DNA of 64,000 bases from assembly GCA_964598565.1 (NCBI GenBank), contig CAZRCG010000009.1, positions 1,943 to 65,942 on the forward strand, in the 5' to 3' direction. Below are positions 42,520 through 63,718 of this stretch, piece by piece. This stretch comes from an uncultured Bacteriovoracaceae bacterium (lineage in GTDB: Bacteria > Bdellovibrionota > UBA2394). A program made the position numbers and the translations under genes. Each line of letters starts with the position of its first letter. Position 1 is the stretch's first letter. Below the pieces are notes generated by a model. The model was not told the DNA's origin. It did not search any database and saw only the letters and a program-made list of their open reading frames with translations.

Positions 42520-43287
42520 TTAAAACGGTTTGGAAGAAATCGGCCACAACCAAAGGTCGTGCTTCGACGATAGATTCGATATCAGTTCGTTCGAGCCCTT
42601 CAGCTCGTAGTTGCCAGACGACACGACCAGTTTCAATTTTGTTTTTGTAGTGGGTACGGAAGGCACTGTCAGAAAAAAGGGAATTCCCGGATGCCGTTCT
42701 ACCAAATCACGACTTGCTAAGGCCACCGACACAGATTCAGCGGCCCAAGAAATAAGGCGCCCTTCAGAAAAATATCCGACAAACGGAAAGCTTTGCCTTA
42801 ACTGATGGAAAGACCCTTCCAAATCGGATGAACTTCGCTCGGTACCTTCATAACGTACCGTATCCCAATACAACTTCGACTCCGTATCAAAGGCTCTAAA
42901 AATAAGATGTTGATCGCGATCTTCATCGACCCAAAACACGAGTTTCGTCTCAGCAGCCAATGAATTTAAAAGACTGATTTGCGACGGTTCATCATAGACA
43001 CGATCAAAAGATTGACACTCTAAGCCCCAAACATTGTCGATGGCTTTTCTCACAGACAGCAATACGTCAGATCGTACTCGTGAGGAGCGGCCTAAAACAC
43101 AAAATAAAGATTCTGGGGAAGATGACTCTAAAGACTCCTCGCCCCGAAGACCCTCAGAACTGCAAAGAGTAAACGCCCCTAGAATCAACGCTAAGATCTT
43201 AAAACCACTGAATATTCTCTTGCTCTCAACCTTATCTCCTCTCCATACTATCGAGGTGAGGAGATTGCAGTCTCTTAAATGGGTCAT
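42520..43287 (-). CDS. Hypothetical protein, probably exported; start uncertain
   Basis: Long ORF with a signal-like hydrophobic segment near the N-terminus. Confidence 0.55.
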   Translation of the reverse strand: MTHLRDCNLLTSIVWRGDKVESKRIFSGFKILALILGAFTLCSSEGLRGEESLESSSPESLFCVLGRSSRVRSDVLLSVRKAIDNVWGLECQSFDRVYDEPSQISLLNSLAAETKLVFWVDEDRDQHLIFRAFDTESKLYWDTVRYEGTERSSSDLEGSFHQLRQSFPFVGYFSEGRLISWAAESVSVALASRDLVERHPGIPFFLTVPSVPTTKTKLKLVVSSGNYELKGSNELISNLSSKHDLWLWPISSKPF

Positions 43288-44068
43288 TGTTCAGACCACT
43301 CCTTCGTCGCGTGCGCTCTGCCTCAAGGATATCCTACATAAAAAATTTCCTCAGCATTCTTTTTCGTACTTTGATACAAAGAGCAAACGGCAAGAGCTTA
43401 GATCTGCCCATGGCATTGTCTTTGAACTAAAAAATCTGAATCCCAAGACCTTACGCAGGGCAGATACGCTGCTACAACAACTCGGTCGCATTCCTCGCAT
43501 TTTAATTGTGACACCCGAGGGATACCAGATCCTCACCAAAAGACATCCTCTTTGGATTGATCATAGCCTCATTATTTTAAGTGAAACGGCTAGTTTGGAC
43601 TATTTGCTTCATATTCCGCGTTTAATTCAAGAGGTCATCAATAAACGTGATCTTAAACGACAAAACGAAGAACTCCGAAAGATGATCAATGATAAAGTGC
43701 AAGAAATCTTCAAGAGTGGCACAGACGGCGTCTTAGATGAATTGATGGACGATACCCATCCCCCTCCCTGCCGCATTAAAGTTACCATGCGACGCTGGCA
43801 GGCTACGTCTCGGAGGCTTGGCTCGGCGATGGCCCAAAGCACTCTTTTTGAAACTCTTCACCAAACGATTGCCCAATCGGTACGACAGGGGGACCGCATT
43901 CTGCATGCGAAAGAGAATGAGTTTTTAATTTTTTTGGACAAAACCTCCAAGCCCCAACTGGAGCGGTGTAGAAAGCGTATCGAAGCCGCTCTGGCGCAAG
44001 TCTCTCTTTGGGCGAATGACAAACCAATTCCCTGCCCTTTTGAGGTTGTCACGATTGCCGATCATTGA
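43265..44068 (+). CDS. Degenerate GGDEF-domain protein with intact I-site and receiver-like N-domain
   Basis: RQGD, 5 aa, KENEF at 43883-43924. Start placed at TTG 43265 after GAGGTGAGGAG; the track start at 43034 overlaps the divergent gene. Confidence 0.7.
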   Translation: MQSLKWVIVQTTPSSRALCLKDILHKKFPQHSFSYFDTKSKRQELRSAHGIVFELKNLNPKTLRRADTLLQQLGRIPRILIVTPEGYQILTKRHPLWIDHSLIILSETASLDYLLHIPRLIQEVINKRDLKRQNEELRKMINDKVQEIFKSGTDGVLDELMDDTHPPPCRIKVTMRRWQATSRRLGSAMAQSTLFETLHQTIAQSVRQGDRILHAKENEFLIFLDKTSKPQLERCRKRIEAALAQVSLWANDKPIPCPFEVVTIADH

Positions 44069-48803: not shown

Positions 48804-50300
48804 ATGGGCCACTGGCGGCTTTTCGTCTGCTGTTTGTGTGTGGGGATTCAACCATCGTTAGCGAAAGAGATTTCGTCATCCTCTGAGGATAGTTTTAGGA
48901 AGTCTATTGTTAGTGATCGCAGTTCTTCACGGCACGTCATGAGAGCCCCCGACTCTCAATGTGGCATCTATATTCGATGGTTTTCAGAGATGGGACCTTT
49001 AGGAGACTACCAAGGGCCCCTCGGAGACGAGGGAACCACCGCGGCGGTCGCTACGATTCACTCAATGTTTCAGAACTATGCCGCTCTCGAGCAGGCGCGC
49101 GACAATTTAGAAAACGCTTCGCAAATTGAAACCGCTAGAATTGAAGCAATGGACTCAGCGCCGATTAAACTAATAACCAATGGCCAAATGGAACAAGAAG
49201 ACGAAGCTCCACTAAAACAAGTGGCTGAAGCGCTTGCCTCGAGCCTCACGGAAGATCGAAAGCGATGGCCCGAAACAATCGAAGTTTATGCCATCGGCAT
49301 TCCGTGGCCTAAAGATCAAGGCGGTCCTATCGTCGACCGACTTCAGAGAAAAATAGATGAAGCCGGACTTTCACAATTGGTTAAAGTGCGCAAAGTACGT
49401 CGGCCCTCCTCGACAGGGCTCGCCCGAATTTACGAAGAAATTGTGTACTTTGCGTTTCCCATACCCTCTGAAGACTACGACAAGCCCACGAAGGCTGAAA
49501 CAAAAACAGGTTGGCAGTCGTTCGTAACAAGCAGTGGCATCACCATGACACTTCAAACCGCATTCTTTGGTTTGACAGGATTTGCTAGTGCGGTCATGAA
49601 CGGTGTGTTTAGCTATGTCACAACGTTCAATCGACCGACCTGGAACAACTACTACGCTAAGCACAAAACATCCGCTGAGGCATGGATCCGTCAATTTTGG
49701 ATGAATACCTATTTTGGCGCGGGTATTTACTGGGCCACCAAGTTTTTTAGCGGCGGAACAAGCGATGTTTTCAAAGTACTAACCGAAATGGCGACTCTAT
49801 CGGGATGGAGTCACTATTTCGTCAGCAAGCTTCACTCTAATCTGATCGGGACCGGCTGGAGAAAACCTCTCGAAACAGGCAGTCAACTTTGGATTCAGAA
49901 AGAAGCGGCCGAGGGTCGGGGTGAAGAAGCCCGGGCCATTGCCGCTACCATTCGAAAATGGGCCACCATTTTCTCCACTAATATGTGGGCTTTTTCACTC
50001 ATTCTCTCTGAAGCCACGAGTTTACCGCTTTTCACCTCTTTAGAAAATATGCTTGGAGTTAATCTGTCGTGGTTGGGGGGAAAAGTTAGCATTTTAGCTT
50101 GGGATTTTAATCTTGGTCATGTCGGACTTATTTTTTCTGCGGCAGTCTTTGGCACACTCGCTAAGTACCCCGAATACTACCGCCTGGCCGAACAGAGTTT
50201 TCGTCGCGAAAAATGGGCCAAGGTTCGAGCCTATTTTGAAAAGCTTTGGATAAAAATAGGAGAGGGCTATGTGCAATCGGCTCCGCCGTATCTGCCCTAG
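48804..50300 (+). CDS. Hypothetical exported/membrane protein (498 aa)
   Basis: Signal peptide plus several hydrophobic segments in the C-terminal half. Confidence 0.7.
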   Translation: MGHWRLFVCCLCVGIQPSLAKEISSSSEDSFRKSIVSDRSSSRHVMRAPDSQCGIYIRWFSEMGPLGDYQGPLGDEGTTAAVATIHSMFQNYAALEQARDNLENASQIETARIEAMDSAPIKLITNGQMEQEDEAPLKQVAEALASSLTEDRKRWPETIEVYAIGIPWPKDQGGPIVDRLQRKIDEAGLSQLVKVRKVRRPSSTGLARIYEEIVYFAFPIPSEDYDKPTKAETKTGWQSFVTSSGITMTLQTAFFGLTGFASAVMNGVFSYVTTFNRPTWNNYYAKHKTSAEAWIRQFWMNTYFGAGIYWATKFFSGGTSDVFKVLTEMATLSGWSHYFVSKLHSNLIGTGWRKPLETGSQLWIQKEAAEGRGEEARAIAATIRKWATIFSTNMWAFSLILSEATSLPLFTSLENMLGVNLSWLGGKVSILAWDFNLGHVGLIFSAAVFGTLAKYPEYYRLAEQSFRREKWAKVRAYFEKLWIKIGEGYVQSAPPYLP

Positions 50301-50500: not shown

Positions 50501-50989
50501 CTACAGTCTCACTTTTAAACGGCCAGAACTTATCGATTCTGTATAGATAGTTGTCGCCATCACTTCGAGCTGAATTGGCTTTAAATCAGGAAAATCGCTA
50601 TCAAAACCCACGTCGACAGTGCGTCCAGACAAGTTTTCAGAACAGGCCCATTTCCAGCGCGCTCTCAAATCTTGGTGAGCCTCATCGTAGTTTTTGTCTG
50701 CCATAGTATCTACCAAAGTGCAAGACTTGGGCAAGGTCACATAATTTTCTATATTCTGCTGCAATCGCTCTAAAGCCGATAAAGGGCCCTTCTTAGGCTT
50801 CATCATCTTCTCACTAGCCTGCAAACGAAACTCTAAAGAGGAGCTGACCTTCGAGCCTTCTTTCTTCACCTCTAACTCGACGACAAGAGTTGCAAACAAG
50901 ACACTCTTGGACATATTCCGTTTCTTTAATTCATTGGACTCCTTTAATTTTTTGGACGTCTCTGAGTCTTTTGATTTCTCTGATTTCAT
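50501..50989 (-). CDS. Hypothetical protein, weakly DUF2796/ZrgA-like
   Basis: C-terminal HQDLRARWKWAC...FPDLKPIQLEV resembles the ZrgA pattern; no His-rich N-terminus. Confidence 0.4.
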   Translation of the reverse strand: MKSEKSKDSETSKKLKESNELKKRNMSKSVLFATLVVELEVKKEGSKVSSSLEFRLQASEKMMKPKKGPLSALERLQQNIENYVTLPKSCTLVDTMADKNYDEAHQDLRARWKWACSENLSGRTVDVGFDSDFPDLKPIQLEVMATTIYTESISSGRLKVRL

Positions 50990-50993
50990 TGCC

Positions 50994-52412
50994 TTAACCC
51001 CCTCGAGCTACGGGAAGCTCCAAACTGATTCTAAGGCCTGGTTTCAAATTCGTAAAATGAATCGGTATAGAAGCTAGTCGACAAATCTCTCGACAGAGAT
51101 TTAAGCCAATTCCCAAGCCAGAAACGGGGGCAGAATGAGGATCATTCATGATCTGAATAACGTCATCGGAAACGCCAGGGCCACGATCCACGATATCCAC
51201 TCCCACTAAGAGGGAACTCTTCGAATAGATATAAATCTCAGGCTTGGATTTCTCGCCGCCGTGCTTCACGCTATTGCGAATGAAATTATCGATCAACAGT
51301 GAAAATAGATCTGGGTCCATGGTCACCATCGGTAGAGACTCCGATAAATGTACTGCCACCTCCGCTCGATAATTCTTGCGAAAATCTTTCGATAGGTCGG
51401 AGAACACCTCCGACAAAGAAACCGCTTTAGGTCGATACGATTGACCCGCCCGATCTCGCTGAGCCAACTCTAAAATCGTGTTGATAATCTGATCGATCTT
51501 CTTAATATCGGAGGCAAATACTTTCAGCATAGCCTCGTAGTCTTCACAACTCTTACTTGAGTATCCCGCCGTTTCAATCTCCCCGAGCATCATCGTCAAC
51601 GGTGTGCGAACCTCGTGGGCGATGAATCGAGCCAGAGATTGGTTGGCAATCGACGACCGCTGAACGCGACTAATCAAATTATTGGCCGCCTCTACAATCT
51701 CATCTAAAAAGTCGCCATCTTTGGTCTCCGGCAAACTCCTCCAAAGTTTTAGTTCTCGATCTTTTAATTGACGCATCTCTTCGGCGACAAACCGAATAGG
51801 TCTAAAAATTCTTCCGGCAATTACATTGGAGACAACCAACATTCCGAGCAGAAGTACAAAAAGCACCATCAAATAGGGTACTATAGATTCCATCAGCACC
51901 TCCATCACACGTGGAAGCGGTTGGCTCATTTGAACAATGCGTCGCTCGCCGGTGGCCAAACGATAACTCGCACGAAAAGTTACATAGTTGCGACTCGTTT
52001 CGATAAAGCGACTGTGGTCGTCATCGAGAGAAAGACCCTCGTCGAGAAATCGAATCTCGTCGTGAGGAAAATTACTGTACATCAAAATGCCAAACTCATC
52101 GAAAATTCGAATAATTCGATAAAGTCGAGTAATCGACAAAACGCCCCTCAAAATACTGGGCAATTTTTCATGCTCATCAAAAACATTAAGATCTTGCAGA
52201 CCAATGCTCACCAGTCGTTCGGTCGTTTGTTCGAGATCTTTTTTGGTGTCTTCGCGAATATTGCTTAATAATATAGCGGTAGATACAGACATGACCAAAA
52301 GGCATGCCGCCGCCGATACAGACCAAAGTATTAAAGTAAGTCGAAACGTGAGCGATGTTCTATTCGCCCGAGGTAATCGAAGCCAACGAATACCCCACTC
52401 CTCTCTTGGCAT
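50994..52412 (-). CDS. Sensor histidine kinase (2TM-HAMP-HisKA-HATPase)
   Basis: AHEVRTPL, NSVKH, DRGPG, GLGIGL. Confidence 0.92.
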   Translation of the reverse strand: MPREEWGIRWLRLPRANRTSLTFRLTLILWSVSAAACLLVMSVSTAILLSNIREDTKKDLEQTTERLVSIGLQDLNVFDEHEKLPSILRGVLSITRLYRIIRIFDEFGILMYSNFPHDEIRFLDEGLSLDDDHSRFIETSRNYVTFRASYRLATGERRIVQMSQPLPRVMEVLMESIVPYLMVLFVLLLGMLVVSNVIAGRIFRPIRFVAEEMRQLKDRELKLWRSLPETKDGDFLDEIVEAANNLISRVQRSSIANQSLARFIAHEVRTPLTMMLGEIETAGYSSKSCEDYEAMLKVFASDIKKIDQIINTILELAQRDRAGQSYRPKAVSLSEVFSDLSKDFRKNYRAEVAVHLSESLPMVTMDPDLFSLLIDNFIRNSVKHGGEKSKPEIYIYSKSSLLVGVDIVDRGPGVSDDVIQIMNDPHSAPVSGLGIGLNLCREICRLASIPIHFTNLKPGLRISLELPVARGG

Positions 52413-53061
52413 GAATCAACGATACCCTATTTTCGAAATTAATCTTCTTTTTTAGACGCCCCACCGTAACATCCACCAAATTAGAACCGGGATCGAAATT
52501 CATACTCCAAACTTTCTGCAGAAGCTCAGCGCGGGTGAATATTCGCTGGGGCGCCGACATGAGTGTCGCCAATAAACGAAACTCCTTTGAGCTAAGATCA
52601 ATGACCATGGTGGAACGCATCACTTTTTGTGTCGGAAAATCGATGGTAAGATCCTCATAGTGAAGCTCTCGACCCGAGCTTGCGGAAGGATCTTGAAGCG
52701 TCTGACGAGCTAAGTTTCTGACTCGCGCCACAAGCTCTTCGATATGGAATGGTTTTCCCAGATAGTCATCGGCTCCTTGCTCTAAGCCATCTACCTTCTG
52801 GTCGACTTCAGAGAGTGCACTTAAAATCAAAATTTTCAGGTGAGGATGCAATTTGCGCAGTCGGGGTAGCAAGGTCAGGGTGTCCTGGCTTCCTAAAAGT
52901 CTGTCGAGGACCACAACGTCAAAATCGTGGAGTTGAAGCGCCACTTCGACTTCGTCAAACTGAGACAGAGAATCGACCGTCATACCAGCCTGCTCTAACC
53001 CCATGGTAATAAACCGCTGAACTCTAGGCTCATCTTCGACGAGTAATATTTTCATCGTCAT
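52360..53061 (-). CDS. OmpR-family response regulator (CusR/CzcR-like)
   Basis: MKILLVEDE, VLDRLL, GADDYLGKPF, wHTH with NLVDVTVGRLKKKI and RGVGY. Confidence 0.93.
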   Translation of the reverse strand: MTMKILLVEDEPRVQRFITMGLEQAGMTVDSLSQFDEVEVALQLHDFDVVVLDRLLGSQDTLTLLPRLRKLHPHLKILILSALSEVDQKVDGLEQGADDYLGKPFHIEELVARVRNLARQTLQDPSASSGRELHYEDLTIDFPTQKVMRSTMVIDLSSKEFRLLATLMSAPQRIFTRAELLQKVWSMNFDPGSNLVDVTVGRLKKKINFENRVSLIHAKRGVGYSLASITSGE

Positions 53062-53285
53062 GGACTCCAATCTTAGTGCTGAATGCATCAGGGAGCAAGC
53101 TTGTGACATCGTAAGAATATCTCCTATTTTTCTGCCTTTTTCCCATCCTCGCGGAGGCCAAAACCCAGCACCTCGAGGGAGGTTGGGAGGAGGCCGACTT
53201 AAATTTGGGCACCTCCTCCCGATGGGACAGGGCTTTCAAAGAAAATAACTATAAAAGTAGTCTAACGATCAAAAGGGACACAATG

Positions 53286-53317: not shown

Positions 53318-54337
53318 TTGGGCATGGACCCGTCTTATACGCCACCGCGAAGCTCAACTTTCTGCATTGATTTGAGAGAGTCAGACTATGAAACCCTTAA
53401 GATATCGATCGATCTAATGACGAGGATTCATAAAAGTCCCTGCTTTTTGGGCATTCACGAAATATCTTGGAGTCCTCAAGAGCAAATTTTAGAAGTGGGC
53501 ACAGAAACGAGTGAAATCTACAACCACAACTTCGATCGCGCCCGTACCCAAGATCAAGCATTCAAAACTCAAAGTGTGCAGATTCATTTCAAAACCAAAG
53601 AGACGGCTTATTCCATAAGCCAGGCGATTACAGATTTTTTGTCGACTTTAAAAGACTTGGGTCCCCAACGTAAGACACTCGTTGTGCGCGAAATTCCCCA
53701 CGAAGACTGGAATCGTAAGTGGTCAGAGGCCTTTGACGGTTGTGACGTCGAGCCTTACTGGTCGATTCGCACGTCAGATTCTCCACGACCGAGACGCGAC
53801 GGTACGATAGCTCTCATTATTAATCCTAGCGTTGGCTTTGGTTCTGGCAGTCATCCAACGACCGCCCTCTGCTTACGCCAAATCGGCGACTGGGGTAATA
53901 CTTTAGCCAATAGCGCTTTCTTGGATTTTGGAAGCGGCTCAGGCATTCTGGCCATCGCGGCAGCCAAACGTGGGGCTCACGTTGACGCGGTCGAAATTGA
54001 TGGAATGGCCTTAGAAAATGCTCGGGATAATGCCGCCCTTAACGATCTTGAGAATCCTATTCAATTTTTTGAGACGATTCCAGAGACAATCCCGCCGCGA
54101 ACCTATCACTTTATCGTAGCGAATATTTTAGCCGTTACACTAAAATCAGTCGCCCCCACTCTAGCCAAACGCCTCACGGTCGGCGGAAAGCTGGCGCTAG
54201 GCGGCCTCTTAAAAAATCAGGCCGATGAAGTACTTGATGCGTATAAGCAAGCGTTTCACTCCGTAGGTCATACAATTCGCGGGTCTTTACGATTTCAGGA
54301 AGACTGGGCTCTGCTAGTGATTGAATTCGCCGAATGA
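53318..54337 (+). CDS. prmA: Ribosomal protein L11 methyltransferase PrmA
   Basis: EDWNRKW, GFGSGSHPTT, LDFGSGSGILAIAA, VANILA. Confidence 0.9.
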   Translation: MGMDPSYTPPRSSTFCIDLRESDYETLKISIDLMTRIHKSPCFLGIHEISWSPQEQILEVGTETSEIYNHNFDRARTQDQAFKTQSVQIHFKTKETAYSISQAITDFLSTLKDLGPQRKTLVVREIPHEDWNRKWSEAFDGCDVEPYWSIRTSDSPRPRRDGTIALIINPSVGFGSGSHPTTALCLRQIGDWGNTLANSAFLDFGSGSGILAIAAAKRGAHVDAVEIDGMALENARDNAALNDLENPIQFFETIPETIPPRTYHFIVANILAVTLKSVAPTLAKRLTVGGKLALGGLLKNQADEVLDAYKQAFHSVGHTIRGSLRFQEDWALLVIEFAE

Positions 54338-55667
54338 TTTCGCTAGGGCTGTAGTCATGGGCTGGGGATTATGGACACTTCTTCTGACCGCCTCGATCAA
54401 CCAGGCTTCCAACAAACATAGTTCAACTAGTCCTGTTTCGACGGTAGAGGCTTCGCCGCTGCCTGTTCACGAAACTCAGTCGCAACGAATTCACTCTCAA
54501 CTTCTGAAAGTTAATCAAGCCCTCTTGAGAATTGATGAGGGTGTGGAACCGTGCCTCACGCAGCCTTGTCAGAAAGAACGTCATTATATTGCTGACGAGA
54601 TCGCCTCACAGAGTCTGATCTGGGAAGACCTCTGGCTTCCCCAGAGAACGATCGCGCTCAGAAGCCTTCGACGCATTCTTCGAAATCCTGGGCGAATTTC
54701 TAACAGAGATTCATTCGATGTAAAAGATGAGCTCGTATGGCATTCATTTGAATTAACGCTGCGCGAATCTCAATCGCTGTTTCCGTGGCTTCGCCGTCTT
54801 CAGACAGACCCTCAGCTTTTTGAAGTTATAAGACGTTTCTGGAATATAGGGGGCGTGGAACTTGCATTTCTGCAATTTGAGTTGAGTCGTCACATGAGCA
54901 TCCGAGATTCGTACGATGATATCTCAAAAGATCCTCTTCTACAGAGGTTAAGCCGCCGAATGGCGCAGCTAAGCTCTTCTGTGGGAGTTGCCTATGAAGA
55001 CACTCTCGCACTTTTCTTACAGGCTGAAGAGACAAGCTTCGGATTATCGACCTCTACCGACGAAGTTCAAAGCTACCAAACGATCATGATGATTCGTAAC
55101 CTAGCTCGACTTTACACACTTAAAATTATGCTTGCTGACGCAGAGATTTTTGACGATGCATTTCATCGTACCGCAAGCCGGTTTGAGAACAATCTTCAGA
55201 GCCTCTCTAAGCTCATCGTTCGATTTAATGAAATTACCCTCGGAGTGAGTGGACTGAAGAATCTCTATGGAATTGAAAGACGATCGCGCTCTCTGCCCTT
55301 AGAAGTTCCCTCGCTCGAGTGGGACATCTCGCTGGCCAGTTTCTGGAGTAAAACGATCGATACCGTCGCCTCGGTCTATGGTTATTCGCTGGGTCGAGCG
55401 AGCTTTGGTCTTTTGGCAGCAGGCACATTGGCATCGGCCCCTCAGTGGCTTCACATATACAAAGAAACGACCTTGTTTGATATTTGGAGCCATCATAAGG
55501 CGCGCCGCCTACAAGACAGACTCACCGCAATAGAAGAAAATGATCGGATTTTTCAAGCCCTTCAGAAACAACGAGAATCCATTTTACTCCGGCTGCGAAA
55601 AAACTTTGTAGGACACAAAAGAAAGCTTGAGGCTGAGCTGCAAAATCTCCTACAACAAGACTATTAG
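54321..55667 (+). CDS. Hypothetical helical exported protein with hydrophobic segment and C-terminal coiled coil
   Basis: 448-aa ORF overlapping the prmA end; start may be ATG 54357. Confidence 0.7.
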   Translation: MNSPNDFARAVVMGWGLWTLLLTASINQASNKHSSTSPVSTVEASPLPVHETQSQRIHSQLLKVNQALLRIDEGVEPCLTQPCQKERHYIADEIASQSLIWEDLWLPQRTIALRSLRRILRNPGRISNRDSFDVKDELVWHSFELTLRESQSLFPWLRRLQTDPQLFEVIRRFWNIGGVELAFLQFELSRHMSIRDSYDDISKDPLLQRLSRRMAQLSSSVGVAYEDTLALFLQAEETSFGLSTSTDEVQSYQTIMMIRNLARLYTLKIMLADAEIFDDAFHRTASRFENNLQSLSKLIVRFNEITLGVSGLKNLYGIERRSRSLPLEVPSLEWDISLASFWSKTIDTVASVYGYSLGRASFGLLAAGTLASAPQWLHIYKETTLFDIWSHHKARRLQDRLTAIEENDRIFQALQKQRESILLRLRKNFVGHKRKLEAELQNLLQQDY

Positions 55668-55693
55668 GTCATTTCTGTAGGAGGGGTTTTAGA

Positions 55694-56416
55694 ATGTGTC
55701 ATTTCATCAAAGTATCTGTAATAAGCTTATTCTTAGGAGGCATGATCGTACCGACCCTCCGTGCCGACAATGCGATGGACGATCGCCCTTATAAAAAAGA
55801 GCTGATAGAATTCATTGCTCTGCTCAACGAGTATGTGGCTGTCGCAGGCCCTGGCAATACCGCGATCACTCGCGATGCGGTCGCCGCAATGAAGCCCCTA
55901 AGTCGAAAAATCGCGACATTCTATTTTGATAAAGTGACTAAAGATAAATCCCTGGGCGATACCTTGATTGAGGCATTCGTCTCGATGGTCGCTGAGAATC
56001 CTCATCTCAATGAAGAATTCGTATTTCTGGGCAATGCCTTTGTAGAGCTGGCTTTAGAGATTCTATCGACAAAGAATAGGCGTGGCCCCACCAACACTTA
56101 TAAAGCGACCAAGATTGGAGCCGTCACTGGCATTGTAGTGGGCACGCTTATCATTATTGTAATGAAAGGAAGCGTTGGCGGTCTTATCACCGGAGGGCTG
56201 GTCGCCGCTGGCGCAATTGGAATCGGATTTTTGATTGGTCAATCCTCGACCACGATTTTGCGTGTCGATCCAAGAGTTCAAACAGCCGAAGATTTTAATG
56301 CGCGCTTTAAGAGTGGTCGCGACCTGGTCAACTATCGACTACCTCTGGCTCTTTTGCAGAGATTGCCATCTACGAATGGAGTTGAATTCACCCACGGAGT
56401 CGAGTTCGCGCAATGA
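55694..56416 (+). CDS. Hypothetical exported protein with glycine-zipper hairpin
   Basis: Signal peptide; GAVTGIVVG...GGLITGGLVAAGAIGIG; RBS GGAGG. Confidence 0.75.
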   Translation: MCHFIKVSVISLFLGGMIVPTLRADNAMDDRPYKKELIEFIALLNEYVAVAGPGNTAITRDAVAAMKPLSRKIATFYFDKVTKDKSLGDTLIEAFVSMVAENPHLNEEFVFLGNAFVELALEILSTKNRRGPTNTYKATKIGAVTGIVVGTLIIIVMKGSVGGLITGGLVAAGAIGIGFLIGQSSTTILRVDPRVQTAEDFNARFKSGRDLVNYRLPLALLQRLPSTNGVEFTHGVEFAQ

Positions 56417-57129
56417 TGGCCCTGTGGCTCTTACTGGTAGCAAGCCCTTCTTTGGAGGCCTATTTACCATCGGATCCCCTGGACCAAGAATCAGACTTTG
56501 CGTTTTACTGGGGTGATTTTTTATTCAATGCGTATCCAGACTATCCAACTAACAATCCGGACTATCCAACTAATAAACCAAACTTTCCGACAAAAAAAAA
56601 TGCGCCGCTAGATCAGACAAACTCTGTCAACGTAGAGCCTCGAGCACTTTATCCGATGAAATCCCTTATCATTCAAGAACTAGCGGCCAGCGTCCTCGAT
56701 GCTACGTCACGGCATCAGTTGCAGAGTCGATTAAGATTGATTCATAAAGCCCATGAAGATTCTGTCCGAAACGGAGCCCCTGAAATATCCAAAGACGTAT
56801 GGCTAGCTCTTGACGGCGAATTAAATTTGCAGTGGTCAGCTATTTTGGCCCCTCCTCCGGCCGATTCGAAAGGCGCGACGAGAGGCAACTCTGAATCCAC
56901 CCGAGAGAAATCATGGCTTGGCGCCGGATTAGTTTATCTCAGCGGTTTGAGTCCTATGGTGCCGTTAGCACGCGGGCTTCTATCATTGAAATATTCTCGC
57001 GATAAATCGAAAGTAGCGTTGCCAAGAGACGATAAAGATCTCTCAAGATCTTATTCCGCTAAAAGTGACTACTTTGGATTCTTGTTATCCGATCTACGAC
57101 TTGGGGAGGATCTTGCCCATGATGAGTAA
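56413..57129 (+). CDS. Hypothetical exported protein with Pro-rich heptad repeats
   Basis: Signal peptide; PDYPTNN-PDYPTNK-PNFPTKK; ATGA overlap with the previous gene. Confidence 0.7.
   Translation: MMALWLLLVASPSLEAYLPSDPLDQESDFAFYWGDFLFNAYPDYPTNNPDYPTNKPNFPTKKNAPLDQTNSVNVEPRALYPMKSLIIQELAASVLDATSRHQLQSRLRLIHKAHEDSVRNGAPEISKDVWLALDGELNLQWSAILAPPPADSKGATRGNSESTREKSWLGAGLVYLSGLSPMVPLARGLLSLKYSRDKSKVALPRDDKDLSRSYSAKSDYFGFLLSDLRLGEDLAHDE
56534..56596 (+). repeat. Three degenerate 21-bp in-frame tandem repeats
   Basis: ATCCAGACTATCCAACTAACA / ATCCGGACTATCCAACTAATA / AACCAAACTTTCCGACAAAAA. Confidence 0.8.
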
Positions 57130-58078
57130 TATTCTTTTTTTAGCGCTTATTTTACAGTCGAATTCTGAGGCCGCGTCTTCGAAGCCTCTTTCTTCTGAAT
57201 TTGAATTTGCTCCCTTTATTGAGTCCGACCTTCCAGAAGAAGATCGCCTTTTATTGGAAGCCTCCCTTGCACGTTTATTGCGCATGCAACGTAAGACATC
57301 GGCGGCACCGAACTCTTCCTCCTCAACCAACACCAACGACGGCAGTCATTCAGAACCTAGGGTGGGAACCTTGGGGACAGACTCCGAGCCTGAAGAACAA
57401 AGTTTGGAGGAGCTTGTCCTGGAGACACTGGAACGTGCTCAAGAAGATCAGCGAAAGCGTCTTAGCCAAGAAGAACTACGCCGTTTGGAAGCCGCCCTAA
57501 AGAACGATAGAGTCATCTTGATAGCCCTGGAAAAATTTTTGGCCGCGCCTTTTGATCCTGATAGCCCTTCTCAAAAGCCTGAGTTCTTGAGGGCTGAAGG
57601 ACACCTGATTAATCTACTTTTTTTTGCGCCAGAAACCTCATCGAATCGTCGACATTTTATTGTAAGCCACTATCGTTTGCGCCAGCCCGACGCGCTTTTG
57701 CGTTTTGCTCATTTTGAAAAAGTGATGCAAGCGCGCTATGACGAGCATGCTGTTCGGCATAAAGGACGCGAAAAGGTCATAGCGGGTTTAATCACGGTGG
57801 CCGGAACAGCCGCTGGCCTCTGGATTGGATGGCGCTATTATAAAAGCCCTGTGGCTGCCGATGCTCGACTGCCCGCCGTGCAAAAAATTCTCCGCCATAT
57901 AGCTGTCGTGGGTCTGCCGGTTTTGGGATACAAACTGGGCTCCACGTTTTCGGTGGAGTGGGCGCCCCTCTTGAACGGATACCTCTCACCGCCTAAAGAA
58001 TCGTTTAGCAATGATCCTCTCTACAATTATGGGGATTTAAGCGAGCTCATTCTTCTGGACCAGGAACTTAGCCAGTAG
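57119..58078 (+). CDS. Hypothetical exported protein with two C-terminal hydrophobic helices
   Basis: Signal MMSNILFLALILQSNSEA from ATG 57119; hydrophobic VIAGLITVAGTAAGLWIGW and IAVVGLPVLGYKLG. Confidence 0.72.
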   Translation: MMSNILFLALILQSNSEAASSKPLSSEFEFAPFIESDLPEEDRLLLEASLARLLRMQRKTSAAPNSSSSTNTNDGSHSEPRVGTLGTDSEPEEQSLEELVLETLERAQEDQRKRLSQEELRRLEAALKNDRVILIALEKFLAAPFDPDSPSQKPEFLRAEGHLINLLFFAPETSSNRRHFIVSHYRLRQPDALLRFAHFEKVMQARYDEHAVRHKGREKVIAGLITVAGTAAGLWIGWRYYKSPVAADARLPAVQKILRHIAVVGLPVLGYKLGSTFSVEWAPLLNGYLSPPKESFSNDPLYNYGDLSELILLDQELSQ

Positions 58079-58157: not shown

Positions 58158-59441
58158 TTAAACTCGCCCTAGAAGGGTCTTTGCGCGATGACTGATAAGA
58201 TGTCTTTCACGAAGGACCTTCTGCCCCAAAGTCGAAACCGATCGGCGAGCCTCTGGGTTGTTTAAATAGAGATCGATCTTCGCATGTAAGTCATCGGTAT
58301 TCTTAAATGACTCGAGGCCTCCTTCTGGAAAAAATTCAATCGCCACAGATGGCCGGTCTGTCAGAGGAAATCCGCCATACGCTAGCACTTTCAGTGGCCG
58401 TTCATGCAGAGCCTGACGAAAGGACCACTTCGTAAAACAAAGCTGAATCTTGGCATGTCGAAATGATCTCTTGAGATCGTCTTCTGAGAGTCTCGGGCCC
58501 TGATGACTCAAGGTCGGCAGCAAAAAATTTTTCCACTCCTGCCCCCCATAGCATTTGAGACCCTTTGGAATAAGCGTCGTCATGACAGACAGCATCTGCC
58601 TCCAAGAGTATAGAATCTCGAGCCGTCCTCGCATTTGCACTAAAGCCAGCTTCCAATCGTCGGGCAAAAGCAGCGCCATCGACTTTTCAGCACTCTCTCG
58701 GGCTCTAAGAAATTGAAGTGGCTCTGTATAATCTCCGCTCATGAAAGCAAGTAATACAGGTTGAAGCTGCCTCAAAACAGAATCGCTGGAGGAGGCTTTA
58801 AACCCATAATCCGGGAAGTGCTTTAGATGATTCAGAAACTCTAGAGCAAATAACTGCGCAAACCCTTCGGTTCGATCGCCTTCAGTTAAGAGTGGAAATT
58901 GAATTTGTCGATTGGGAGTTCCGATAAAAACGAGATCATCACGAAATGAGGGCTCGCTGGATAAGCTCATCGATGCCGACTGTTCGTACGGGATGCTCAC
59001 CGTATTGTCGCCAATTAACCACTCATCGGGAATGCCTAGTGGTAAGTAAGACGCCTGATATCCAAGATCTTTGAAAATCGCTTCGTGTTCGTGGTCAACC
59101 ACGAGAAAATGAAAGTTCTTAGGCCACTGCCCACCTATCAAACGGCGAAGCCACTCGGGGCTGCCCGACGCAAAGGGATTCTCCCAGTACCAGGAATAGA
59201 TTTTTTGGTTTTCTTCAAGGAGTCGGTCTAGAAGAAAGGTTCGATCAGGCCAAAAATCAAAACAATACGTGCAGTGCGTAACCCAAAAATCATAACGCTG
59301 ACGGATCACCGTCTCGACCTTAGACCACAATTGACCAGGGCCTAAAACAATACGCGTGACGTGATGACCCTCTCTTTCGAAGGCCTTCGCAAGTCCTTCC
59401 ATAAGAGGCTCATTCTGCCATATCAGCATGGCAATTTTCAT
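58158..59441 (-). CDS. CgeB-like glycosyltransferase
   Basis: YGGQEW, LHERP, GGFPLTD, RHLISHRA. Confidence 0.82.
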   Translation of the reverse strand: MKIAMLIWQNEPLMEGLAKAFEREGHHVTRIVLGPGQLWSKVETVIRQRYDFWVTHCTYCFDFWPDRTFLLDRLLEENQKIYSWYWENPFASGSPEWLRRLIGGQWPKNFHFLVVDHEHEAIFKDLGYQASYLPLGIPDEWLIGDNTVSIPYEQSASMSLSSEPSFRDDLVFIGTPNRQIQFPLLTEGDRTEGFAQLFALEFLNHLKHFPDYGFKASSSDSVLRQLQPVLLAFMSGDYTEPLQFLRARESAEKSMALLLPDDWKLALVQMRGRLEILYSWRQMLSVMTTLIPKGLKCYGGQEWKNFLLPTLSHQGPRLSEDDLKRSFRHAKIQLCFTKWSFRQALHERPLKVLAYGGFPLTDRPSVAIEFFPEGGLESFKNTDDLHAKIDLYLNNPEARRSVSTLGQKVLRERHLISHRAKTLLGRV

Positions 59442-60745
59442 TAAAGAGGTCCTGCCTCGATCGTGCCGATATTTCTACCTCTTAGAATGTTATGGAACGA
59501 CTTTAACAGCTGTTTCACTCGCTGGTCGAATCCATGATCTTTTTGAACTCTTTGAAAGGCGCGCTCACTATAGGCCGTTCGAAGGTCTGGTTTCGCCAGA
59601 AAATAATCTACCTTCTCCAATAGGTCGTCGACCGACGAATACGAAATCATTTCGTCCGATGAAAAACAGTCTGCTAAGCCAGAACGAGCATCGGTTAAGG
59701 CAAACCCTTTGCAAGCGGCAATAAGAAAGGGTCTCTCATGTACGGCAGTTCGAAACTGCCATTTTGTATGACACAAGTTGATGGGTGACTGGCTGAAGAC
59801 ATGACACAGTTCTTCATGGCTAAGCTTAGGACTTTGCCATGAATAAGACCCTAAATACTTCTGAGCCCATTCGTCACCGCCAAAGACCCGAATATCTTTT
59901 TCTTTTAAGCACCACAAAAGATCATTTAAAATCCACCACGAGTAAAAAAAGTCAAAACGCGAAAAGAATATTAACACTTCTCTATAGCTCACAGGGTGCA
60001 GGTCTCGCAGAGCTTGGTCGAGTAAATGAGATCGATGAACTTCAAATGCGTCTCGAGTCCACGTCGTTGTTTCTAACAGGTCAATGAGAATATCCCTCAC
60101 TCGAAGAAGATCTTTCCGATAGACTTCCTGTGGTAGCAGCCCCATCCGAGTCTGTCGTGCGAATGCTGAAAAATCGTGAAAGAGATGCTTACAGTGATTG
60201 AAACGAAGCTCGTATCGAGATTGATTAGGAGAATCCACCGCGGTCTTTGGCTTCCCCACAAAAGAAATTGTAGGAACTTCTAAATGCTTCGGCAATGGTT
60301 CACCCACAGGTTTATAGATGTCTAAGTCGACTCCAATTGGAATAAGATGTGTAACGGCGCCGAGCTTTATAAGCTCCTCTTGATGATACGCATCCACAAC
60401 AATAAATAGATCAAAGGGTGGGAGGCGCCCCGAATGAAACCGGCTCACCATCGAGTAAGACCCGGAGGCCCAAGGACTGTCCCAGTACCAAGAGACCATG
60501 GGAATTCCTAAAGTCTTAAGACCCTCTTCTAATTCTTGTCCTTCTTTCACTTGAATATCGAAAGCGTAGGAGTTGTGAGTGAGAATGACATGGGGCTGAA
60601 ACGTTTTGACGAGGTCTAGCACGCAGGCATGCCTGATATCTTCACTTACGTCGATACGTAAGACGTCGACACCTTCTTGCTTGAAGGCACGCTCTATCGA
60701 ACTCATAATAGCTTCTTGATTCCAAACAAGAAGGGCTACTTTCAT
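59441..60745 (-). CDS. CgeB-like glycosyltransferase
   Basis: FGGDEW, VHERP, GFALTD, DHGFDQRV. Confidence 0.82.
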   Translation of the reverse strand: MKVALLVWNQEAIMSSIERAFKQEGVDVLRIDVSEDIRHACVLDLVKTFQPHVILTHNSYAFDIQVKEGQELEEGLKTLGIPMVSWYWDSPWASGSYSMVSRFHSGRLPPFDLFIVVDAYHQEELIKLGAVTHLIPIGVDLDIYKPVGEPLPKHLEVPTISFVGKPKTAVDSPNQSRYELRFNHCKHLFHDFSAFARQTRMGLLPQEVYRKDLLRVRDILIDLLETTTWTRDAFEVHRSHLLDQALRDLHPVSYREVLIFFSRFDFFYSWWILNDLLWCLKEKDIRVFGGDEWAQKYLGSYSWQSPKLSHEELCHVFSQSPINLCHTKWQFRTAVHERPFLIAACKGFALTDARSGLADCFSSDEMISYSSVDDLLEKVDYFLAKPDLRTAYSERAFQRVQKDHGFDQRVKQLLKSFHNILRGRNIGTIEAGPL

Positions 60746-61995
60746 AGATAGCCTTTCAATACATTCATCAAATCGAGTGCTCTAGAATCGTAGGTCATAC
60801 GATTCTGTACCCACTGACGACACTGAGCTTGAACCTTCTCTCTCTCTCGAGAGTTCATTAAGAAAAAAGAAACTTTTTCTTTCGCTTCTTCCTTGCAGGT
60901 ATAAACGAAAGACGGTTGATCTCCATAAGACTCGGTGAGGTCCTGCTTATCATCGGTTACTGCAAAACCACCCGATCCAAAAATCAAAATCGGTCTTTCG
61001 TGAATGCCGTTAATAAATTGCTGCTTGGTATAGCAGAAGCTTACACCAGCCGATGAAAAGCAGTCGTCGAGCTCCTTTTGAGAGAGCCATCGACTCGATT
61101 TTGATGCTGCCTCCCCCAGATGCCAATTCCACTTGGTCGATCCATACACCTCCAAGCCGAGAGGCTGAAGCTCCGATAGATAGTCACTCATCTGTCCGTA
61201 GGAGAAGATCATATCCACTCGACCCGCCAACAGTAAGATTAGCCTATAGAAACCCGCTGGCACCTTACCCCTTATTCGAGCCATAAATGCATCAAACGCT
61301 CGGCGATAGTCGCGAACGGGAGCATTCATGGTATCAAAAACAGGGTGAATCTGCCGATCAATCAGCTCAAGCCCAGTCTCCACCCATCGATTCTCCAGAC
61401 CCAAAGCCCCTTGTTTCTCAAGCACCAAGGCCTTAAGCTCCGATAAAAACACACCATGAAAAAAATCCTTACGCTTCGTCGTGGTATCAATGGCTTGATG
61501 CACATCTTCCCACGGTTTTCCGACAAAGGCGACTTTGTTTCGAAAGGAAGAACGCTCGGAAGGTTTCCTTTCCAGGACACTAGCGTCTACTGCCAACGGA
61601 AAATAATGCGCACGCAAACCTCTCTCCGTCAGCGCTGGAATCCAGCCAGAATCTGTGACGAGATGAATAAGATGTTGTGGGTAAGGGCCAAACACATGCT
61701 CGTTAATTCGTTGCATGCGGCCGCTTGAAAAAGGACTATCCAAGAACCAAACAAAAATAGGTTTATTCATTTCCCTGAAAACAAGCTCTAAATCCTGCCC
61801 ACAAGAACGAAGCTCATCGAAAAAGTAAAGATTGTGCGTTAGAACCGCGTCAAAATTATTGTCTAAAATAATTTTTTTTAATGCTTCTGGTGAATGGCTA
61901 TCGACGACATCACACTCATGGCCTAGTTTTCTCCATGAGTTCGCAAGATGCGTTATATGAAGCTCTTGATGCGATCTCAAAAAAAGAATCTTCAT
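60742..61995 (-). CDS. CgeB-like glycosyltransferase
   Basis: YGSTKW, IHERP, GGFAVTD, MTYDSRA; start ATG 61995 (ATGA overlap). Confidence 0.82.
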   Translation of the reverse strand: MKILFLRSHQELHITHLANSWRKLGHECDVVDSHSPEALKKIILDNNFDAVLTHNLYFFDELRSCGQDLELVFREMNKPIFVWFLDSPFSSGRMQRINEHVFGPYPQHLIHLVTDSGWIPALTERGLRAHYFPLAVDASVLERKPSERSSFRNKVAFVGKPWEDVHQAIDTTTKRKDFFHGVFLSELKALVLEKQGALGLENRWVETGLELIDRQIHPVFDTMNAPVRDYRRAFDAFMARIRGKVPAGFYRLILLLAGRVDMIFSYGQMSDYLSELQPLGLEVYGSTKWNWHLGEAASKSSRWLSQKELDDCFSSAGVSFCYTKQQFINGIHERPILIFGSGGFAVTDDKQDLTESYGDQPSFVYTCKEEAKEKVSFFLMNSREREKVQAQCRQWVQNRMTYDSRALDLMNVLKGYL

Positions 61996-63107
61996 CCCTG
62001 CTTCCACGCATCCACAACATGTTGGCCGAAACTTCGAATATCATTCTCTGTCAATGAAAATGAGGATGCCAGCCAGAATCCGCGTTTTGAAACAGATATC
62101 GCCTGGCTAAAATTCTCAAGACCAGCTTGGTAGGGCTTTTGCGTGGCAAGACAAAACCAAAATCGTCGATATCCATAGTGTAAGCCCGTCAATATAGCTT
62201 CCAGTTTTTCTGGTTGTTCGCAGAGACAATCAGTCCATTGACGGTACTCTCCCGCTTCAGAATCATCTAAAAATTTAAGATCGGCAATGCCTGCCCACGC
62301 ACTTCGATAGATGGCATCACGGAGTTTGGCCTGATCAAGTCGACCGGCGAGTTTCTGCATCTGTCCACATCCCAGAGCGGCTTGAAGATTCGTCAGCTTA
62401 AAATTAAATCCAAGCTCCGGGTGGAGATCATTGCCTCCGGTACCACGACGCGGTCGCCCCTGATCTTTTAAAGCCACCGCGCGTTCATAAAGAGAGCGAT
62501 CGTTGGTTACAATCATTCCACCTTGCCCTGTGGTGACCGTCTTATTCGACGAAAACGAGAAAGCTCCTGCGAGACCAAATGTGCCAAGCTTGCGACCGCG
62601 AAACGACGACCCCAAGGCTTCGGCAGAATCACAAATGAGAATCAAACCTTTTTCTTTGCAGAAGGGCTCAAAAAAATCATAGGCCGCTCCTCGTCCATTA
62701 ATATCGACCGTTACGATGGCCTTGGTTCGAGCACTCAGAGACTTCTTGACGAGGTCGGGGTCTAAACCGAAACGATGGGGTTCAATATCGACCAACTTAA
62801 CGGTAGCTCCTGTGAGTCTTACAGCGTTGGCTGTTGCAATAAAAGTTAAGGCCGGCACGATGACCTCATCCCCCGAGCCAATACCTGCCGCCATCAAACT
62901 TAATGCGATAGCAGCCGTGCCGCTCGTGACAGCAACGGCGTACGAGCTGCCGACGGTCGATTTAATTTCATTCTCAAATCGAGTGGTCCACTCTCCTTCA
63001 TTGAGATACCCACTATCTAAAACCGATAGAACAAAGTCTCGTTCAATAGAATTTGTTTCAGGCTGGTACCAAGGTATATCTCGCCGGCCCTCTGCGTTTA
63101 GTTTCAT
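61992..63107 (-). CDS. DegT/DnrJ/EryC1/StrS PLP-dependent sugar aminotransferase (perosamine-synthase-like)
   Basis: TSGTAAI, TFIATANAV, CDSAEALGS, SFSSNKTVTTGQGG, GFNFKLTNLQAA; start ATG 63107. Confidence 0.93.
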   Translation of the reverse strand: MKLNAEGRRDIPWYQPETNSIERDFVLSVLDSGYLNEGEWTTRFENEIKSTVGSSYAVAVTSGTAAIALSLMAAGIGSGDEVIVPALTFIATANAVRLTGATVKLVDIEPHRFGLDPDLVKKSLSARTKAIVTVDINGRGAAYDFFEPFCKEKGLILICDSAEALGSSFRGRKLGTFGLAGAFSFSSNKTVTTGQGGMIVTNDRSLYERAVALKDQGRPRRGTGGNDLHPELGFNFKLTNLQAALGCGQMQKLAGRLDQAKLRDAIYRSAWAGIADLKFLDDSEAGEYRQWTDCLCEQPEKLEAILTGLHYGYRRFWFCLATQKPYQAGLENFSQAISVSKRGFWLASSFSLTENDIRSFGQHVVDAWKQG

Positions 63108-63718
63108 GGGCCCGTCCTTTTTATAGGCCTTGCAGGAACGCCGACAACACAAGCTCCCGACTCAACATCGCCGGTTACCACAGCTCCAGCACCGATAATG
63201 ACATCAGATCCCACTCGACAACGAGGTAAGATGATCGCGCCGGCGCCTATATAAACTCTGTCTCCCACGACGACATTCCCCAGGAGAAGTGCCGATGGAG
63301 CGATGGTGCAGAAATCGCCTACTCGACAATCGTGATGCACAACCGAATTGACATTGAGCTTACATAGTTTTCCAATGTGCGCGCCTGCCATTACCTTCGC
63401 TGCCATTTGAACAATTGAGCCTTCGCCGACTACAGCAGATGGAGAGATGAAGGCTTCTAGTGATATCAGCGTCGCAAACGAGCCTTGATAAATCTCAAAA
63501 AGTCGAACTTTGAGACTGCAGGGATCAATCGCCATAGCAACTTGTAAGCTGGAGATTTTGTCTCTCATGTTTACAAAATCCCCATCGCCCCCTAAGGCTA
63601 AGAAGTCTAAAATGGGCGTGCTTACGTGAGGATCAAAAAATCCCTTCACATCATAGTCAAGACTACGCGCTAACTCTAGAATTTCTTTGTCGGCACTAAC
63701 AACTGCAAGAGGCTTCAT
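63104..63718 (-). CDS. NeuD/PglD-family sugar acetyltransferase
   Basis: Hexapeptide left-handed beta-helix, VVHHDC, GVPAR. Confidence 0.9.
   Translation of the reverse strand: MKPLAVVSADKEILELARSLDYDVKGFFDPHVSTPILDFLALGGDGDFVNMRDKISSLQVAMAIDPCSLKVRLFEIYQGSFATLISLEAFISPSAVVGEGSIVQMAAKVMAGAHIGKLCKLNVNSVVHHDCRVGDFCTIAPSALLLGNVVVGDRVYIGAGAIILPRCRVGSDVIIGAGAVVTGDVESGACVVGVPARPIKRTGP

Follow-up and report, generated by a model that had tools for sequence, protein, structure and literature searches.

A conserved four-gene module of exported helical proteins in an uncultured Bdellovibrionota lineage, candidate for a resident envelope complex

Do four tandem orphan genes in a poorly known group of bacteria encode a pore-forming system directed at other cells, or a structure of the producer's own envelope? 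The question is raised by a 64,000-nucleotide stretch (the window) of contig CAZRCG010000009.1 from an uncultured Bacteriovoracaceae bacterium, in which four plus-strand open reading frames (ORFs), here named P1 to P4 in order, occupy positions 54321-58078. An earlier note on this DNA had described them as four exported proteins of the same architecture, and had compared them to bi- and tripartite alpha-pore-forming toxins of the ClyA, Hbl, Nhe or YaxAB types, or to a hetero-oligomeric membrane complex. Here we compare the cluster with its counterparts in related genomes and with known protein families. The reading that we favor, and to which we assign an even chance, is that P1-P4 form a lineage-specific, vertically inherited, hetero-oligomeric complex resident in the cell envelope.

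The comparison set was a class-rank group of 14 genomes including the present one, all of one family and distributed over 11 genera. NCBI names among the 13 relatives include Bdellovibrionota, Deltaproteobacteria or Bradymonadales bacterium, and every labelled one is a metagenome-assembled genome. Family alignments of P1-P4 were built from the members of this group (14 members for P3 and for P4). Conservation of the gene order, which the earlier note had put forward as a check, is complete: P1-P2-P3-P4 is kept in 14/14 genomes and all 11 genera, with overlaps or short gaps throughout. The genes flanking the cluster differ between genomes, and because these vary while the P1-P4 order holds, the four-gene unit is the invariant part. 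This arrangement is beyond chance. In the closest genome pair, where the synonymous substitution rate (dS) is saturated, the ratio of nonsynonymous to synonymous rates (dN/dS) is about 0.03-0.05 for P2-P5, and the dN of P1 and P4 is approximately twice that of their neighbors. Judged by these comparisons, the genes are functional and under strong purifying selection. As a general claim, the designation 'fast-evolving orphan genes' was rejected, as P1-P4 among the relatives diverge about as fast as the genes next to them. Of 1.84 billion cluster representatives, just 42 proteins, all of 95-270 amino acids (aa), were retrieved with a P2 profile, and no distant family. The four proteins are confined to one small uncultured lineage, with the module being lineage-specific and vertically inherited. 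Three genomes, G004, G010 and G013, have a fifth gene 3' of P4, which encodes a P2-like paralogue whose N-terminal region is shortened (L015:2799-3452, minus strand; L020:8105-8785, plus strand; and L023:8199-8879, plus strand).

In the present genome the four ORFs were recovered where the earlier note had placed them, and its description of tight coupling, by a gap of 26 nucleotides (nt) and by overlaps, was borne out. The extents it had given are those of real ORFs, however the gene-caller products are shorter, with P1 comprising 436 aa from 54357 and P4 319 aa from 57119. The ATG codons at 54357 and 57119 are likely the starts of P1 and P4, respectively, because the protein collection lists the 436-aa and 319-aa products. 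The alternative P1 start, a TTG at 54321, is situated inside the 3' end of prmA, and the ATG at 54357 lies 20 nt past the prmA stop. The spacing of 26 nt between P1 and P2 includes a strong Shine-Dalgarno (SD) sequence, AGGAGG, 9 nt ahead of the P2 ATG. P2 and P3 overlap by ATGA, and P3 and P4 by 11 nt with the ATG at 57119, or by 65 nt with a GTG at 57065, the former being preceded by another strong SD sequence, GGGGAGG. With this layout, the four genes are translationally coupled. The G+C content of the cluster, 0.46-0.49, is the same as in the surroundings, and a promoter and terminator consensus scan revealed nothing above shuffled expectation. The module is single-copy in this genome. No small membrane-protein (immunity-like) gene adjoins the cluster on either strand, here or in the relatives, and no dedicated secretion genes were detected near it.

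The similarity in build that the earlier note had assigned to all four proteins proved to apply to P2, P3 and P4, which share a Sec-type signal peptide, a helical domain of ~100-130 residues, two Gly/Ala-rich hydrophobic helices connected by a loop, and an acidic tail. It does not extend to P1, which has no membrane-grade segment and is unrelated to the others, and the P3 of this genome retains a single weak segment. Signal peptides were called by pattern (basic n-region, hydrophobic core and A at -1). The signal-like N-termini noticed earlier correspond to this Sec pattern, which was found in all four proteins and in their families; in P2, P3 and P4, the A at -1 is often followed by E, Q or D. 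The four hydrophobic or Gly-rich strings that had been quoted are likewise all present in the sequence. Primary similarity among P2-P4 is indeed low, as had been stated, yet profile-profile comparison with hhalign relates the three: P3-P4 aligned with a probability of 99.2% (E 2e-19), P2-P3 with 97.2% and P2-P4 with 93.9%, and the alignments extend past the hairpin into the helical domain. Thus, P2, P3 and P4 are ancient paralogues despite their low primary similarity. P2 and P3 family members are 180-255 aa long. The hairpins of P2-P4 are located 35-60 residues from the C-terminus and are followed by acidic tail motifs such as GEDFI...DL (P2) and DPIDGxEDLRDLLD (P4). Hydrophobicity was judged by a Kyte-Doolittle scan and a crude sum of Hessa-scale values, with the summed Hessa values of the hairpin helices falling at +0.6 to +3, i.e. 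marginal hydrophobicity. AlphaFold (AF2) models cover P1 and P4, and for these two proteins they agree with the all-helical bodies that had been assigned to all four. The P4 model is all-helical with a pLDDT of 63.6 and a confident core at approximately aa 110-240.

P1 is of a different kind. Profile-profile comparison separates it from P2, P3 and P4, and the Hessa-scale scan revealed no transmembrane-grade segment beyond the N-terminus, the P1 segment quoted in the earlier note not being membrane-grade. The AF2 model consists of helices throughout (pLDDT 74.8, pTM 0.60) and ends in a C-terminal helix of ~60 residues. Two loops are conserved in the family (Table 1), and the model contains single beta-bridge residues at 75 and 309, one in each loop. 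These residues probably pair, which suggests that both conserved loops come together at a single tip of the modeled structure. The invariant cysteine pair of the first loop fits a periplasmic or extracellular location.

How might these proteins be arranged? Sec export combined with a hydrophobic hairpin most simply describes a protein of the inner membrane whose two ends are both periplasmic, and such a topology is in line with the acidic tails and with the positive charge of the P4 loop. In the complex that we favor, P2, P3 and P4 would each be exported by their Sec signal peptide, placing the helical domain in the periplasm, while the C-proximal hairpin of glycine-zipper type would hold the protein in the membrane, most likely the inner membrane, and the acidic tail would return to the periplasm. 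P1 would be a soluble, periplasmic, all-helical protein, probably disulfide-bonded, in which one tip is strongly conserved and the C-terminal helix is long. In the membrane, the three paralogues would then pack together through their Gly-rich hairpins as a hetero-oligomer, with P1 docking on the periplasmic domains of P2-P4, which would give the cell a fixed structural or scaffolding complex in its own envelope. The topology, the physical interaction and the role of P1-P4 are here what we infer. Of the two possibilities raised in the earlier note, the hetero-oligomeric membrane complex appears to be the better fit, as three hairpin paralogues and an exported partner always occur together and under purifying selection. 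An analogy is the MICOS core, where Gly-rich hairpin proteins with both ends non-cytoplasmic (Mic10) are paired with a larger helical protein (the coiled-coil Mic60); however, no sequence relationship to P1-P4 was seen.

Comparison with known families was congruent with the orphan status noticed earlier, in that Pfam, NCBIfam, PHROGs and PADLOC yielded no match to a recognizable family and the Protein Data Bank (PDB) no relative. The P1-P4 proteins of the window gave no meaningful match to these four libraries, and neither a phage nor a defense family was detected; typical relatives gave nothing above cut-off in the same libraries, except one P3 hairpin in PF05433. Sequence-profile searches of the PDB with the P1-P4 family alignments remained at chance level (E>=0.03, with matches to coiled-coil designs and, for the P3 family, to a glucosyltransferase-domain segment at E 0.11). 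Foldseek runs of the P1 and P4 models against the PDB recovered no match at E<0.3, the P4 model being only partly confident, and a run of the P1 model against the viral library BFVD returned nothing significant. AhlB, SmhB and ClyA did surface in Foldseek at E 1.6-6.3 and TM 0.11-0.15, among axonemal coiled coils and G-protein-coupled receptors, which represents noise. At E<=1, no ClyA/HBL-type Pfam family was found for P1-P4 of the window or listed for the members of the P2, P3 and P4 alignments. The tripartite toxins of the ClyA family (AhlABC, SmhABC, Hbl, Nhe and MakABE) do resemble the module in their tandem all-helical components, some with a hydrophobic two-helix element, and in having paralogous subunits that act together. 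However, toxin subunits are ~300-400 aa long and carry the hydrophobic element centrally, in a head domain between long helices, whereas P2 and P3 are much shorter with a C-proximal hairpin; moreover, the P1-P4 module is universal and vertical within one lineage. The ClyA/Hbl/Nhe/YaxAB-type reading of the earlier note is consequently left without support from Pfam, from Foldseek of the P1 and P4 models, from size and layout, and from the hhalign comparison with colicins described next. As for the outcomes that the note had held to speak against its proposal, co-occurrence of the genes was confirmed, and three of the four proteins share ancestry; a relationship to known pore formers, by contrast, is lacking for all of them.

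Like P2-P4, colicin pore domains have a helical domain, then a hydrophobic helical hairpin rich in Ala and Gly close to the C-terminus, and a short last segment. One P4, from the same-genus genome (G001), matched 167/185 positions of the Colicin model PF01024 at 18.8 bits, below the cut-off of 23.4 bits, and no other P4 of the group matched this model at E<=10. As a yardstick we used ten colicin pore domains, taken from bacteriocin genes on public Col-type plasmids. When the P2, P3 and P4 alignments were run against these ten domains with hhalign, the probabilities were 0.9-3.8% over 34-59 columns, restricted to the hairpin, and the Colicin pore-forming domain was rejected. P2-P4 also differ from colicins in lacking translocation and receptor domains as well as an immunity gene, and in having a Sec signal.

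The sole recurrent similarity is to glycine zippers. Glycine-zipper models of Pfam match the P3 hairpin in 8/14 members at E<=1, with one member above the PF05433 cut-off (25.2 vs 24.2 bits) and the P3 of the window unmatched; in the P2 and P4 families there is hardly a match. Weak NCBIfam matches concern the glycine-zipper part of the YiaD, TagQ and PdsO lipoproteins. From sequence, this similarity would name the type of hairpin and not its function. Outside the group, a P3 profile run over 400 genomes of the phylum gave as its sole match the hairpin of an M48 peptidase. This peptidase (~350 aa) was rejected as a distant P3 homologue, the match being limited to the Gly-rich hairpin and reflecting compositional similarity. 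An M48-type metallopeptidase with a HEIGH motif and a lipoprotein-like N-terminus, encoded outside the window (G000, contig C5:85326-86366), bears such an embedded Gly-rich two-helix hairpin, found by the P3 profile, and similar proteins of ~330-390 aa account for most P3-profile matches in 35 genomes of the phylum's other families.

All four proteins are more diverged in this genome than in any relative. Mean identities to the other genomes are 17% (P1), 22% (P2), 23% (P3) and 19% (P4), against medians among the others of 24, 33, 35 and 36%, respectively. Control proteins do not display such a gap: the GGDEF-like protein described below reaches 33 vs 35%, NfeD 50 vs 53% and FloA 76 vs 77%. 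Profile scores are 141 and 262 bits here, compared with 219-252 and 324-385 in the relatives. The P3 family has two hydrophobic helices, of which the second is replaced by a charged stretch in the present P3. A frameshift was rejected as the cause of this aberrant form, as no other frame encodes the missing helix. The conserved motifs of P1 and P4 are also degenerate in this genome. The joint change of P1-P4 fits co-evolving partners or relaxed constraint.

The neighborhood of the module offers a further lead. A GGDEF-like gene precedes P1 by 34-142 nt in 8/13 relatives, and in 8/13 relatives P4 is followed on the same strand by nfeD (NfeD1b type, within 17-50 nt), a short nfeD and floA. Ancestrally, the genes stand in the order GGDEF-like, P1-P4, NfeD1b, short NfeD and FloA. 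The GGDEF-like protein is degenerate across the group, with KENEF or KEDEF in place of GGDEF and RxSD five residues before; the RxxD site is intact, and the protein is a candidate receptor for cyclic di-GMP (c-di-GMP). In this genome the GGDEF-like gene is shifted by ~10 kb from P1 and nfeD-floA lies outside the window, ~15.6 kb 3' of P4, with prmA and a block of glycosyltransferase-like genes intervening between the module and its ancestral neighbors. Although the linkage is loose, the ancestral partners, a c-di-GMP-receptor-like GGDEF protein and NfeD-FloA, suggest a role in membrane organization or envelope maintenance over one as a secreted toxin.

Could P1-P4 still be an exported, multi-component, membrane-permeabilizing system, where soluble P2-P4 insert their glycine-zipper hairpins as a pore into the membrane of prey or competitors with P1 as a helper, and thereby represent a new alpha-helical pore former? 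We regard this as quite unlikely. The signal peptides on all four proteins, the Gly-rich hairpins, whose marginal hydrophobicity is as for segments hidden in a soluble form, and the three tandem paralogous subunits, recalling tripartite toxins, would all be in keeping with it, as would the Bdellovibrionota label on NCBI records of relatives, although no sign that the host is a predator came to light. According to one report, glycine-zipper motifs occur in membrane-depolarizing antibacterial toxins, such as the type VII secretion system (T7SS) substrate EsxX, where the motif is found in a helical membrane-active region (PMC12744356). EsxX-type toxins are however delivered by type VI secretion systems or T7SS and accompanied by immunity genes, whereas P1-P4 are Sec-exported core genes with neither immunity-like nor dedicated secretion genes nearby. 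Sequence or fold similarity to the ClyA, Hbl, Nhe, Ahl, Smh and YaxAB types is missing, the Colicin domain was rejected, and the helical domains of P2 and P3, of only ~100 residues, precede a hairpin that is C-proximal and not central. Furthermore, a Sec signal would put a periplasm-active pore former at the producer's own inner membrane, and a universal, single-copy, vertically inherited module under strong purifying selection departs from the patchy distribution typical of toxins. That the lineage employs an unrecognized kind of Sec-exported, multi-component, alpha-helical pore former on prey or competitor membranes, assembled from three glycine-zipper paralogues and a helper and unrelated to the ClyA, colicin and YaxAB types, is in our estimation improbable. 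A similarly low probability is given to P2-P4 as outer-membrane glycine-zipper proteins of the SlyB, PCP or YiaD kind, with hairpins in the inner leaflet of the outer membrane that organize or protect it under stress. Glycine zipper 2TM proteins (the PF05433 clan, with SlyB/PCP, the Rickettsia 17-kDa antigen and part of YiaD) have a comparable short Gly-rich two-helix hairpin with (G/A)xxxG spacing; the P3 hairpin matches in 8/14 members and the weak NCBIfam matches to YiaD, TagQ and PdsO point the same way, and marginal hydrophobicity would permit escape from the inner membrane. Those proteins are however outer-membrane lipoproteins, and no conserved cysteine (lipobox) is found at the signal-peptide end in the P2, P3 and P4 families, because of which P2-P4 lack the known route to the outer membrane. 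The latter also possess a large N-terminal helical domain ahead of the hairpin, and the matches comprise ~40 Gly-rich residues of low complexity, fall below cut-off in nearly every case and hardly involve P2 and P4.

Two other explanations were considered. P1-P4 might serve the NfeD-FloA flotillin system as clients or accessory subunits, governed by the c-di-GMP-receptor-like protein and working only together with these partners, a proposal that we consider unlikely. It draws on the ancestral order with short same-strand gaps in most relatives and on the degenerate GGDEF protein with its intact RxxD being conserved across the group; yet nfeD-floA is not adjacent in 5/13 relatives, nor here, where the GGDEF gene is also 10 kb away, and the four-gene unit is still intact. 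In addition, the flotillin domains of proteins such as FloA and QmcA are usually cytoplasmic, whereas the domains of P1-P4 are predicted to be periplasmic. It is equally doubtful that the module is losing its function in this genome, with constraint relaxed and the genes decaying in frames that are still open. The identity outliers, which comprise all of P1-P4 and none of the three control proteins, the P3 that lacks its second hydrophobic helix and has gained a repeat insertion, the degenerate P1 and P4 motifs and the profile scores far below those of the relatives are compatible with decay. But none of the four frames is disrupted, the SD sites are good, the overlaps and the signal peptides are kept, and a concerted change of partners explains the data equally well. 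The resident envelope complex is itself burdened by several observations. In several genomes, this one among them, GGDEF and NfeD-FloA are no longer linked to the module, because of which the linkage may represent inherited synteny only. In five complete genomes of the phylum's other families FloA was not found, and no cluster like P1-P4 accompanies the GGDEF-like homologues there. The first hairpin helix carries a basic cluster on what would be its periplasmic side, which is atypical, and stable insertion in the inner membrane is not assured, because the hairpin helices are marginally hydrophobic. Aggregated, we nonetheless favor the resident envelope complex because of the core-gene behavior, the invariant four-gene unit, the combination of three hairpin paralogues with an exported partner, and the concerted divergence.

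Table 1. Positions of the module, its conserved elements and the GGDEF-like gene within the window
Feature	Position	Strand	Basis
P1, exported all-helical protein, 436 aa	54357..55667	+	ORF; gene-caller product; AF2; Hessa scan; orthologues in 13 relatives
P1 conserved cysteine loop, family motif G..PC....CQ..K; G74, C78 and C83 invariant	54540..54575	+	Family alignment
P1 second conserved loop, family motif DLEYGVVGLxNFxSxxNP, degenerate here; G308, G311 and N314 invariant	55230..55286	+	Family alignment
P2, 240 aa: signal peptide, helical domain (LGNAF motif), hairpin, C-terminal tail	55694..56416	+	ORF; family alignment
P2 Gly-rich two-helix hydrophobic hairpin, aa 141-183	56114..56242	+	Kyte-Doolittle and Hessa scans
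P3, 238 aa, paralogue of P2 and P4, aberrant here	56413..57129	+	ORF; hhalign; family alignment
21-base-pair tandem repeat, 2.6 copies, encoding PDYPTN-type repeats in P3	56534..56588	+	Tandem Repeats Finder; lacking in 13 other P3 sequences
Remaining weakly hydrophobic P3 segment, aa 168-192	56914..56988	+	Alignment; Hessa scan
P4, 319 aa: signal peptide, Ser/Asn-rich low-complexity stretch, helical core, hairpin, acidic tail	57119..58078	+	ORF; gene-caller product; AF2; family alignment
P4 hairpin region: first hydrophobic helix aa 220-238, basic loop, second weaker helix aa 260-285	57776..57973	+	Alignment; AF2; Hessa scan
Degenerate-GGDEF protein, KENEF, RxxD five residues upstream	43265..44068	+	tblastn; alignment; synteny table

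Other features were recorded around the module. The block that separates P4 from nfeD-floA here consists of three tandem paralogous genes on the minus strand (58158-62007), each of ~420-434 aa with a Glyco_trans_1_2-like domain at the C-terminal end, after which comes an aminotransferase-like gene (61992-63152); the glycosyltransferase-like block is common to the same-genus genome at 35-56% identity. In one relative, genes for an SCP2 sterol-carrier-like protein and a phosphoribosyltransferase come after floA, and in two others they come directly after P4 (L016, L017, L025); it looks as if nfeD-floA has been excised or moved as a block in those relatives. Four more lineage-specific families without Pfam matches (~390, 120-170, 160 and 230 aa) recur beside the GGDEF-like gene in relatives (L014-L025), and are scattered over contigs C3, C4, C5 and C9 in the present genome. 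Upstream of the module, the minus strand of the window (50501-53109) encodes a histidine kinase paired with a response regulator and, next, a 162-aa protein that matches ZrgA below threshold (zinc uptake; 23.8 vs 27.4 bits); together these may be a metal-responsive unit. A 498-aa orphan ORF on the plus strand (48804-50300) has a hydrophobic N-terminus, hydrophobic stretches in its C-terminal half and no family match.

At present, P1-P4 stand as a well-supported orphan operon, useful as annotation and as a candidate for structural work, which would hold no surprise for a specialist. Should P1-P4 indeed assemble into one complex, this poorly known, uncultured class-rank group would have an envelope structure that defines the lineage, and three glycine-zipper hairpin paralogues would be shown to work alongside a partner in the periplasm. 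For membrane organization in such bacteria, a testable lead comes from the ancestral association with flotillin/NfeD and a c-di-GMP-receptor-like protein.

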